Origin: a virus
Length of the DNA stretch: 64,000 nucleotides
Direction: 5' to 3' (one strand)
Virus record (IMG/VR): IMGVR_UViG_3300027902_000006
Location: 32,001-96,000 of that record
In this document: piece after piece, positions 48,344 to 49,567 of the stretch
Numbering within the stretch: position 1 is the first letter of the stretch
How the letters are laid out: each line of letters begins with the position of its first letter
The notes under the pieces: model-generated
Told to the model about the DNA's origin: nothing
Seen by the model: only the letters and a program-made list of their open reading frames with translations
The model's database searches: none
Translations under genes and position numbers: made by a program

Positions 48344-48878
48344 GTGGAATCTCCTTAAGTGAGTTAATTCTGATAACTCGGTGATGGATAGGACGACCCA
48401 AGTTCCAACTTCGGTTGAGAAGATAACACACTAGTCCACTCTCTGCTACTTCATTAGCTGTCCGCAGTCGATCCTCCACTATTCCGTCAAGTTGAAGTTC
48501 ATGAAGTAGTTTGACTTTGTCCTTACTCCGCGCCTGTAGAATCGTAAACTTTAATTTAGGAAAGTTATATATAAGCCAATCGTGAGTAGCAGCAATCAAG
48601 TCAGTGCGCCTAGCAGTAATAAAAAGTACAGGAGAGAACTTATAAATCTCCGACGCTCCTTCGTAGGGTTCTATCCCCATCCAGTGTTGATCAATAATAC
48701 TGAAAAAGTAATCCAAGAAGGGTTCAAAATATCCGGGTTGACAAATCTGTTCAAAGAAATCGTGTCTACTAATTCCTATATCGTCGATATCTACGTGCCA
48801 GTCTCTCCACATATGTTGTCTTAGAGGAGTAGTAACATCTGCTAGAGTTCCATCAATATCGAACGCTAAGTTTTCCAT
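48333..48878 (-). CDS. HAD-family 5'(3')-deoxyribonucleotidase-like
   Basis: 'FDIDGTLAD', 'ITAR', 'T..WL', 'VEDR', 'WN'. Confidence 0.85.
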   Translation of the reverse strand: MENLAFDIDGTLADVTTPLRQHMWRDWHVDIDDIGISRHDFFEQICQPGYFEPFLDYFFSIIDQHWMGIEPYEGASEIYKFSPVLFITARRTDLIAATHDWLIYNFPKLKFTILQARSKDKVKLLHELQLDGIVEDRLRTANEVAESGLVCYLLNRSWNLGRPIHHRVIRINSLKEIPHGR

Positions 48879-49548
48879 TTGTTTTTTGTATCTTTCGTAT
48901 CCAACGATACTTAGGTGGAGTTCTGATCCTCTTTAGTTTCAGTTCCTCTCTACTTTCCGCGAGTGTCTTTCCGTTCCTCTGGGCATATCTGAACACGAAA
49001 CGGCGGTGTCTTCGTCCTCCTCGATCATCTTCTAAATGCCATTCTGGATTTGTCATACCGTGTAAGGTAAAACCACAAGCTTTGTAAACTGTTCCCTCAT
49101 GACCATACTCAGGATCGGCAAAGGCAACAAGGCAATCGTGTTTATAAACCTTTAAGACCATCTTCGCAGTTAGTGCAATAAAGCGTGACAGTGGGTATTG
49201 TAGAGGAGGTTCACTTCTACACATTCTCTTTATCTCCAAGACTCTTTCAACTCCTAAGAAACGTGCTTGATATGGATTTACGCCTATCCCATATACTATA
49301 ATAGCATAAAGTTCAGAATTTGCGTAGAGTCCATAGCAGATATTTTTTCCAGTCGGCATTCTTTTTGAATAGTGCCACGTTTCTACCCACTTTTTTGCTA
49401 CGTTGTGTTCAATGGGTTTAATAAAGAAATGGAGCGGTGAAGTCGGATTCGCGCCGCTATCTTCCTCTTGGGACAGAGGGTATGCTGTCTTTGCACCATC
49501 ACCGCTTATCTCATCCAGTTTTCTCATCACTCGCAACGGTTCCATCAA
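48853..49548 (-). CDS. mom: Mom-family GNAT-fold DNA adenine modification enzyme
   Basis: 'HYS', 'LEIKRM', 'SRFI', 'FADP..GHEGTVYKA.GF...G' motif set; start could be 49548, 49545 or 49527. Confidence 0.8.
   Translation of the reverse strand: MMEPLRVMRKLDEISGDGAKTAYPLSQEEDSGANPTSPLHFFIKPIEHNVAKKWVETWHYSKRMPTGKNICYGLYANSELYAIIVYGIGVNPYQARFLGVERVLEIKRMCRSEPPLQYPLSRFIALTAKMVLKVYKHDCLVAFADPEYGHEGTVYKACGFTLHGMTNPEWHLEDDRGGRRHRRFVFRYAQRNGKTLAESREELKLKRIRTPPKYRWIRKIQKTNGKLSVRY
49430..49505 (-). tRNA. tRNA-Gly-like element embedded in frame in the mom 5' region
   Basis: Perfect GCGGTGA/TCACCGC acceptor + T73 + CCA; D stem GTGC/GCAT; CCTCT-GTCCCA-AGAGG; bulged T arm AGCGG-CGCGAAT-CCG(A)CT; 76 nt. Confidence 0.8.
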
Positions 49549-49567
49549 TGTCGAAGGCTAAATTCAT
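49511..49567 (-). pseudogene. 18-aa remnant/leader ORF duplicating the HAD nucleotidase N-terminus
   Basis: MNLAFDIDGTVA vs MENLAFDIDGTLA; TAATG-coupled to upstream gene. Confidence 0.7.

Follow-up and report, generated by a model that had tools for sequence, protein, structure and literature searches.

A tRNA-Gly-like element in phage mom genes as a candidate glycyl carrier for DNA modification

The Mom protein of phage Mu moves glycine from Gly-tRNAGly to the N6 position of adenine in double-stranded DNA, after which a rearrangement takes place on the base (Silva et al. 2026, Nat Commun, PMC13219725; preprint 2023). All three E. coli tRNAGly isoacceptors work in this reaction, Gly-tRNAAla fails and the terminal riboadenosine is essential; the phage was assumed to scavenge the tRNA of its host (PMC13219725). 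The dependence of DNA modification by Mom on tRNAGly was established only in 2023-2026. Positions 32,001 to 96,000 of the 140-kb IMG/VR virus record IMGVR_UViG_3300027902_000006 (64,000 nucleotides (nt), here called the window) contain a mom gene whose 5' coding region includes a tRNA-Gly-like element (TLE). An earlier, sequence-only reading of the window had pointed to this arrangement as its best candidate for an undescribed system, naming Gly-tRNAGly as the reported donor for Mom. The observation was confirmed, each of its predictions that lent itself to computation was borne out, and the interpretation is supported in part. The donor is correct for Mu Mom (PMC13219725); the claim that the system is undescribed does not hold, a tRNA-Gly-like locus in a mom homologue having been published in 2011 (PMC3146451), without a functional link.

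The locus published in 2011, of 76 bp, lies within the first 150 bp of a mom homologue in the ssrA-specific islands of Dehalococcoides and was reported without a proposed function (McMurdie et al. 2011, BMC Genomics 12:287, PMC3146451). Automated pipelines label such mom-embedded loci 'pseudo-tRNA' (PMC3146451). A TLE in mom genes goes unmentioned in the paper and preprint of Silva et al. (PMC13219725), and among open-access papers and bioRxiv no paper tying the element to the donor of Mom was found; the functional link to tRNA-dependent momylation appears to be unpublished. In S. aureus, a non-proteinogenic tRNAGly evades elongation factor EF-Tu and supplies the Fem enzymes (PMC4574755). In Alphaproteobacteria, selC (tRNASec) is nested in the selB open reading frame (ORF), and processing of the tRNA has been proposed to lower the amount of full-length protein (Mukai 2021, PMC8124441). 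The bacterial glycine identity set is the same as the fixed acceptor and loop positions of the TLE (PMC9976931). According to PMC3239215, EF-Tu reads the T-stem region of tRNA, which is where a bulged A of the TLE falls.

The element in the window and in its relatives

The TLE in the window had been described as a 76-nt cloverleaf with an encoded CCA, and its letters and pairs were confirmed exactly. Read on the minus strand from 49505 to 49430, it runs GCGGTGA TG GTGC AAAGACA GCAT AC CCTCT GTCCCA AGAGG AAGAT AGCGG CGCGAAT CCG(A)CT TCACCGC T CCA, and all of the 21 proposed pairs are standard. The element consists of a perfect 7-bp acceptor stem, a 4-bp D stem, a 5-bp anticodon-like stem with the 6-nt loop GTCCCA, and a 5-bp T stem containing a single bulged A, followed by U73 and the CCA. 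The nucleotides that identify glycine tRNA to bacterial glycyl-tRNA synthetase (GlyRS), G1-C72, C2-G71, G3-C70, U73, C35 and C36, are all found.

Taken by itself, the window copy is not clearly above chance: its minimum free energy is -24.1 kcal/mol (z-score -1.87), and 8 of 200 shuffled sequences fold equally well. ARAGORN called six canonical tRNAs in the window, the TLE not being among them, and the Rfam tRNA model (RF00005) gave no match to the window copy even at E<=10, let alone at its gathering threshold. When compared with the family described below, this copy has the T-loop CGCGAAT instead of TTCRAAT, the D-loop AAAGACA without G19 and the loop GTCCCA instead of NTTCCA. Every helix is retained, the A49-U65 pair being a compensatory change. 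Single-sequence tools miss the window copy because T54, U55 and G19 have been lost; judged from the alignment, it is best described as a degenerate member of its family.

That the TLE is nevertheless accepted as real is due to copies in the same place in 44 other loci and to strong covariation. Protein relatives (more than 100 clusters with 55-76% identity) came from a large protein collection and the DNA of relatives from IMG/VR and JGI/ENA metagenomes, allowing 45 distinct TLE copies, including that of the window, to be aligned. A nucleotide search of GenBank phages gave no close relatives, only matches to tRNA genes. The relatives share an N-terminal extension with the consensus ..CGDSSxxELPLFQxxDGGSxPTSPL(Q/H)F, which is a translated tRNA, its GGT TCG AnT CC being a T-loop. 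The N-terminal motif '..G.(N/I)PTSPL' that had been predicted for homologues is recognised in the DGGSxPTSPL(Q/H) of this consensus. The same TLE is present at the same position in each of the 44 further Mom loci.

Over the 45 sequences, 97.4% of the alignment cells form standard pairs, compared to 40-53% when the 3' partners are slid. Compensatory changes occur in 18 of the 21 pairs and in all four helices (160 double-change cells), and none of 500 shuffles matched the observed covariation, so it is clear that the element is selected at the RNA level. The conserved GCGG...CCGCTCCA with covarying stems, predicted beforehand, was in this way recovered from the homologues. Acceptor pairs 4-7 and the entire anticodon stem vary freely; the acceptor variants include GCGGTGA/TCACCGC, GCGCAGA/TCTGCGC and GCGACGA/TCGTCGC, those of the anticodon stem CCCCT/AGGGG, GGAAC/GTTCC and CTAGC/GCTAG. 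Invariant in all copies are G1-C72, C2-G71, G3-C70, the CC of the loop and the bulged A of the T stem, while U73 and C74-C75-A76 are 95% conserved, C74 being the synonymous third position of a Leu codon. The GlyRS identity set, said earlier to be intact in the window, is invariant or nearly so across the family.

The architecture is that of a tRNA, with four covarying helices and the nucleotides that make the tertiary contacts of the L-shape. In the family, U8, A14 and A21 are 100% conserved, G19 is 90% conserved and the TTCRA of the T-loop 82-97%. Tertiary covariation is also observed: G18/U55 is replaced by A18/G55 in six sequences, and A15-U48 occurs 33 times and G15-C48 once. The family departs from ordinary tRNAs in two respects: it lacks both the 7-nt loop that holds a three-base anticodon and a regular, unbulged T stem of 5 bp. 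In the clade with the element at the 5' end of the gene (5'-type), the anticodon loop has 6 nt (NUUCCA) throughout, so that ARAGORN reports many of these TLEs as 'tRNA-??? anticodon (tc)'. The Rfam tRNA model passes 12 of 20 homologous TLEs at 29.6-41.7 bits, with true tRNAs on the same contigs scoring 53-66 bits; a search with this model, proposed earlier as a check, thus succeeded for most relatives tried and failed for the window copy. The short anticodon loop and the bulged T stem had been listed as deviations that break translation. As both are conserved family-wide, they are features rather than signs of decay.

A covariance model, R1, was built from 40 TLE copies. Held-out copies score 60-77 bits and Mom loci without the N-terminal extension give no match, while the canonical tRNA-Gly(UCC) of the window scores 56.5 bits and the other window tRNAs 28-42 bits. 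The window TLE scores 80.3 bits as a member of the training set. With R1, TLEs are also detected in six Chloroflexota loci, again at the 5' end of Mom (44-67 bits). In the three of these that were aligned, the bulged A recurs along with a GCG/CGC acceptor end, U73, CCA and a 5-nt loop. The R1 matches, together with the shared bulged A and the shortened loop, indicate that the window-type and Chloroflexota TLEs are homologous.

The mom gene and the double use of its 5' end

The protein had been called Mom-type, and this assignment holds. It matches the Pfam Mom domain PF25680 over residues 41-224 (E 3.3e-29, 102.4 bits against a cut-off of 27.1) and phrog_1384 (E 7.6e-34), and the family profile matches the Mu Mom structure 8bv8_A (E 1.3e-12). 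Residue 41, the first of the domain, is the codon directly after the CCA of the TLE. R108 and S121 are invariant in the family and align with R102 and A115 of the 8bv8 chain; with an offset of 9 in the chain numbering, suggested by the alanine of the S124A crystal, they would be R111 and S124 of Mu Mom. A scan for promoters and terminators around the gene gave nothing exceeding chance.

The in-frame position of the TLE was confirmed: it lies within the Mom ORF, of which it makes up roughly the first 25 codons, encoding the peptide SGDGAKTAYPLSQEEDSGANPTSPLH. In an AlphaFold2 prediction made with the family alignment, residues 1-40 have no secondary structure and a predicted local distance difference test (pLDDT) score of 40-57, which rises to over 90 from residue 41. 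Given this predicted disorder and the different reading frame in copies at the 3' end of other mom genes (see below), the encoded peptide looks like a passenger. Conservation at codon positions 1, 2 and 3 is 0.85, 0.78 and 0.75 in the TLE, and 0.79, 0.83 and 0.50 in the Mom domain, so that the fall at third positions typical of coding sequence is clear in the domain but slight in the TLE. Changes in the length of the TLE keep the frame open (+3, +3, +6 and -3), and +1 insertions in the D-loop are only found where an in-frame start (TTG, ATG or GTG at +16) is located downstream of the insertion.

An ATG start codon is located 3-12 nt upstream of G1 in 23 of the 45 loci. In 17 loci there is a start in the D-loop, at +15/+16, which is the sole option in six of them; in the D-loop-start loci the 5' acceptor strand, GCGGAGG, serves as the Shine-Dalgarno sequence. 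No in-frame start is present inside the TLE in 23 loci, including that of the window. In the window, no in-frame ATG, GTG or TTG occurs from the first base of the TLE to the Mom domain, so translation must initiate upstream, probably at ATG 49527 or GTG 49530 (public gene call, 225 amino acids). A true start beyond 49430, which would have affected the in-frame part of the earlier claim, does therefore not exist between the TLE and the domain. As a separate observation, in four loci of one freshwater subclade (L001, L004, L035 and L077) an out-of-frame ATG overlapping G1 (ttATGCGGTGAtag) forms a two-codon mini-ORF about 3 nt upstream of G1, and the Mom frame of these loci, without a nearby start, is open for 35-130 codons upstream.

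Placement, function and alternative explanations

IMG/VR was scanned using only the signature of the element, the T arm with the bulged A plus the acceptor end, and the position relative to Mom was determined afterwards, Pfam searches included. Of the 80 loci found in this way, 45 have the TLE at the 5' end of Mom and 28 at the 3' end. Two more have Mom on the opposite strand about 300 nt away and five were left unassigned, two of them at contig ends. More than 90% of the signature-found copies are thus physically joined to a mom gene. The 3'-type copies (L154, L158, L161, L164, L175, L189, L196 and L226, among others) belong to another Mom clade and occupy the last 25 or so codons or lie just past the stop codon. 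They are usually read through in a different frame (…AVRFRPRRS…), the stop then being 1-56 nt after A76. In most of them a 5-nt loop, NNCCA, is closed by a stem of 6 bp, and the D arm is often degenerate or missing; some are only 69-70 nt long, without a D arm. Both types share the conserved acceptor end and CC. The search pattern itself required the acceptor 3' end and the T arm with the bulged A, so that finding these in the 3'-type copies is not independent evidence.

Placement at either end of the gene favours a co-expressed, trans-acting RNA partner over a 5' operator of translation initiation, and the operator interpretation offered earlier is weakened by the 28 loci with a 3' element. 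The TLE also stands outside the general tRNA supply: a 39-kb phage, 96% complete (G402), has no Rfam tRNA match at all, its own TLE (L003) scoring below the threshold, and in a 61.5-kb record the TLE is the sole tRNA match. The cultured Microbacterium phage Dropshot (OR475279, 38.5 kb; L145, record 29496-30229) independently connects Mom with glycine tRNA at the genomic level. Its only tRNA, a canonical tRNA-Gly(CCC), abuts a Mom-like 'acetyltransferase' gene on the opposite strand, which is adjoined by a ParB-like nuclease.

We favour the reading that the TLE is a non-decoding glycyl carrier dedicated to Mom, and give it a probability of about one half. The 5' end of the mom mRNA would encode an RNA derived from tRNA-Gly(UCC) and folding into the tRNA L-shape, which retains all that bacterial GlyRS reads (G1-C72, C2-G71, G3-C70, U73, C35, C36 and the CCA end). 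It would be unfit for the ribosome, its anticodon loop being one or two nt short and the T stem, to which EF-Tu binds, containing an extra bulged A. Some of the transcripts would be processed by RNase P, cutting at G1, and by trimming to the CCA, yielding a free RNA about 76 nt long. The free RNA would then be glycylated by GlyRS and become the private glycyl donor of Mom, which passes the glycine to N6 of DNA adenine. Excision from a 5'-type transcript would take away the start codon, and in many relatives the fold would also mask the ribosome-binding site. Enzyme and carrier would come from one transcript, in a self-limiting manner, and a brake on a toxic enzyme is a likely by-product or second function, of the kind proposed for selC nested in selB (PMC8124441).

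The processing, charging, avoidance of EF-Tu and use by this Mom are what we infer from the conserved features. Conservation of the GlyRS identity set, the CCA and the L-shape speaks for aminoacylation. That of the short loop and the T-stem bulge suggests that the RNA is kept away from decoding and EF-Tu, and the attachment to either end of Mom points to a co-expressed partner acting in trans. With slightly less confidence, and tentatively, the reading may be extended to the family as a whole. A widespread family of phage and island Mom proteins would then encode, in the ORF at either end, its own non-decoding glycyl carrier derived from tRNA-Gly(UCC), charged by the GlyRS of the host, ignored by the ribosome and EF-Tu and released by tRNA-processing enzymes, with a self-limiting ratio of enzyme to donor.

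Several observations weigh against a dedicated carrier. The CCA is absent in 4 of the 45 copies, and the window copy, without T54, U55 and G19 and undetected by the Rfam tRNA model, may be a weakened member. The same phage has two canonical tRNA-Gly genes 2.8-4 kb from the TLE; since Mu Mom accepts any host tRNAGly, a private carrier is not obviously needed. The TLE is absent from 8 of 116 close relatives, checked by hand (P0040, P0046, P0058, P0060, P0084, P0086, P0091 and P0119), and cultured phages with a distant Mom (DSL-LC03, phiSHEF2, ICP1, LP-124 and S-SSM7) have no TLE within 1.5 kb. These TLE-free relatives and distant phages indicate that the element is dispensable for the chemistry of Mom. 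In a quick maximum-likelihood tree with a weak backbone, the element-less relatives fall into two small clades surrounded by carriers, which fits loss. As a separate observation, in three loci with tandem Mom paralogues (L150:1006-2482, L201:2301-3690 and L180), the first paralogue has a 5' TLE and the second, about 700 nt downstream, has none.

The alternative that has to be taken most seriously, and that we consider unlikely, is a purely cis-acting tRNA mimic, which stays in the mRNA to control the output of Mom and is never a glycine donor. It could hide the ribosome-binding site or start codon, act as an autoregulatory operator bound by Mom or GlyRS (as the thrS leader mimics tRNAThr), or be an RNase P signal that inactivates the message. 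The start codons described above, upstream of G1 in 23 loci and in the D-loop in 17, six of which have no other option, are well placed for this, and in the D-loop-start loci the use of the acceptor strand as Shine-Dalgarno sequence would make folding and initiation mutually exclusive. Mu mom is under tight translational control, Mom being toxic (established knowledge, cited in PMC13219725), and the encoded CCA could aid recognition by RNase P instead of charging. However, initiation cannot be gated in the 28 signature loci where the TLE is at the 3' end of Mom or past its stop, and the start nearest to the window TLE (ATG at -21) puts the fold largely beyond the initiation footprint. Nor would an occluding hairpin need the invariant CC of the loop and U73, which are GlyRS determinants, or the complete tertiary set of the L-shape, and an internal CCA cannot imitate an aminoacylated 3' end for Mom. 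A released glycyl carrier that is at the same time a translational brake, neither role alone explaining the conservation, draws on the evidence for both readings; excision in 5'-type genes necessarily takes the start codon, and the proposal for selC inside selB has the same logic (PMC8124441). The 3'-type arrangement shows that a brake is not universal, and we hold this combined explanation to be rather improbable.

It is very improbable that the TLE is an unusual decoding tRNA, a short-loop tRNA-Gly for frameshifting, doublet decoding or resistance to anticodon nucleases that only happens to be located in mom. ARAGORN does read a two-base anticodon, and phages are known to carry tRNAs, six in this window, but the linkage of more than 90% of the signature-found copies to Mom, the bulged A in the T stem contacted by EF-Tu, the degenerate or missing D arm of many 3'-type copies and a loop length varying between 5 and 6 nt all speak against decoding. 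Hardly credible is the remaining explanation, in which the TLE is a relic or recombination site, such as a piece of tRNA-Gly left by integration, or the ORF has been mis-extended through a pseudo-tRNA. A direct repeat of 26 nt flanking the mom cassette does suggest insertion, and pipelines do call such loci 'pseudo-tRNA' (PMC3146451). Against this, compensatory changes affect all helices in at least 45 lineages, the non-canonical features are absent from host tRNA-Gly, and insertions and deletions either come in multiples of three or precede a start codon that has been relocated. A relic of integration at a tRNA site was rejected on the covariation and the conserved non-canonical features. A mis-called ORF start was likewise rejected, there being no in-frame start after the TLE in the window and none inside it in 23 of the 45 loci.

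If the TLE is indeed a glycyl carrier, mom would be the first known case of an enzyme gene that also supplies the aminoacyl-carrier RNA for its product. The large natural family of mom genes containing a tRNA-Gly derivative unfit for the ribosome makes it possible to test how tRNA-dependent GNAT-fold enzymes choose their donor, whether phages keep these pathways apart from translation in the way staphylococci do with cell-wall synthesis, and how one stretch of RNA is selected both as codons and as a tRNA fold. The TLE and Mom would also be a minimal orthogonal carrier-enzyme pair for DNA modification tools.

Surroundings of the locus and comparison with known systems

The features of the locus are collected in Table 1. 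The neighbours of the mom gene encode a HAD-like protein, a helix-turn-helix protein and a PD-(D/E)XK nuclease. The two copies of the 26-nt direct repeat, at 48847-48872 and 49539-49564 (88% identity, spacing 692 nt), flank the cassette of TLE and mom. In the upstream copy, the 5' end of the HAD-like gene that follows downstream persists as a duplicated remnant (MNLAFDIDGT… compared to MENLAFDIDGT…). This copy still overlaps the stop codon of the preceding gene as TAATG, and the in-frame leader preceding the TLE falls inside the remnant. The mom cassette looks as if it has been inserted just within the start of the HAD-like gene.

Table 1. Coordinates of the TLE, the mom gene and the canonical glycine tRNAs in the window.
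Feature	Position	Strand	Details and evidence
tRNA-Gly-like element (TLE)	49430..49505	-	76 nt; sequence, fold, 45-sequence alignment, model R1
Mom-family ORF	48853..49548	-	longest form 231 amino acids; Pfam, PHROG, Mu Mom profile match
Mom (GNAT-fold) catalytic domain	48877..49428	-	residues 41-224; Pfam, invariant columns, AlphaFold2
In-frame leader 5' of TLE	49506..49548	-	starts ATG 49545, TTG 49536, GTG 49530, ATG 49527
Canonical phage tRNA-Gly(UCC)	46580..46654	-	ARAGORN; R1 56.5 bits
Canonical phage tRNA-Gly(GCC)	45364..45438	-	ARAGORN; R1 37.9 bits

The canonical tRNA-Gly(UCC) is likely to be of the type from which the TLE descends, as its 5' half is near-identical to that of some TLEs. 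In one relative (L043:1110-2653) the gene order is as in the window, TLE-mom, tRNA-Pro(UGG) and canonical tRNA-Gly(UCC), so the window phage is not the only one with both a TLE and an ordinary tRNA-Gly(UCC). In the window, both canonical glycine tRNAs are part of a block on the minus strand (44536-46895) with tRNAs for Gln, Gly(GCC), one with a CTA anticodon (amber-reading; 'Pyl' in ARAGORN), Gly(UCC) and Pro. Two ORFs are interspersed in this block, a small one (45505..45864) and one with a GGQ motif that by eye resembles a release factor or ArfB (46210..46578), which hints at a role in translation rescue or recoding. A canonical tRNA-Thr(UGU), called by ARAGORN at 51143-51217 on the minus strand, is the second ORF-nested tRNA in this phage. 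It is located in frame and on the same strand within the ORF of a 752-amino acid class II ribonucleotide reductase-like protein (51060..53318, minus strand), in its 3' part before the Cys-rich tail (…AGSIPIASPMCPDCG…).

Among the known systems, the leader of E. coli thrS and the 3' tRNA-like structures of plant viruses resemble the TLE as tRNA mimicry in an mRNA or genome recognised by aminoacyl-tRNA synthetases. However, the thrS operator mimics only the anticodon arm, in an untranslated leader, while the TLE is a complete cloverleaf inside a coding sequence; the plant-virus structures are 3'-terminal and can be charged in place, while the CCA of the TLE is internal. As in the case of selC and selB, a whole tRNA is nested in frame in the ORF whose product uses, or in our case would use, this tRNA. 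The tRNA of selC is canonical, takes part in decoding and is placed at the 3' end of the ORF, whereas the TLE appears to be a non-decoding derivative and is found at either end. The tRNAGly(UCC) species of S. aureus that serve FemXAB are charged with glycine by the normal GlyRS, bind EF-Tu weakly and serve a GNAT-fold transferase (PMC4574755). They are without G18 and G19, and the window TLE is likewise without G19. They are encoded by free-standing genes and have a 7-nt anticodon loop and a regular T stem, unlike the TLE with its short loop and bulged T stem within the ORF of the enzyme.

Mu Mom belongs to the same family (PF25680, with the 8bv8 match at E 1.3e-12), and the catalytic Arg and Ser are conserved. 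It relies on host tRNAGly of any isoacceptor, no embedded TLE has been reported for it, and its identity to the window protein is below 30%. The Dehalococcoides locus of McMurdie et al. is, like the TLE, a 76-nt tRNA-Gly-like cloverleaf in the first 150 bp of a Mom-family gene. It is found in an ssrA island with serine integrases and has a 5-nt loop, whereas here the setting is a 140-kb phage and the loop has 6 nt; the integration module of the ssrA islands (DsiB/DsiA, RecF-like, ParB-like) was not found at the window locus. The 2011 description came without a function because the donor of Mom became known only in 2023-2026. The window locus is a phage-borne, degenerate member of the kind described structurally in 2011, and the carrier reading would assign a function to the 'pseudo-tRNA' of the Dehalococcoides islands.

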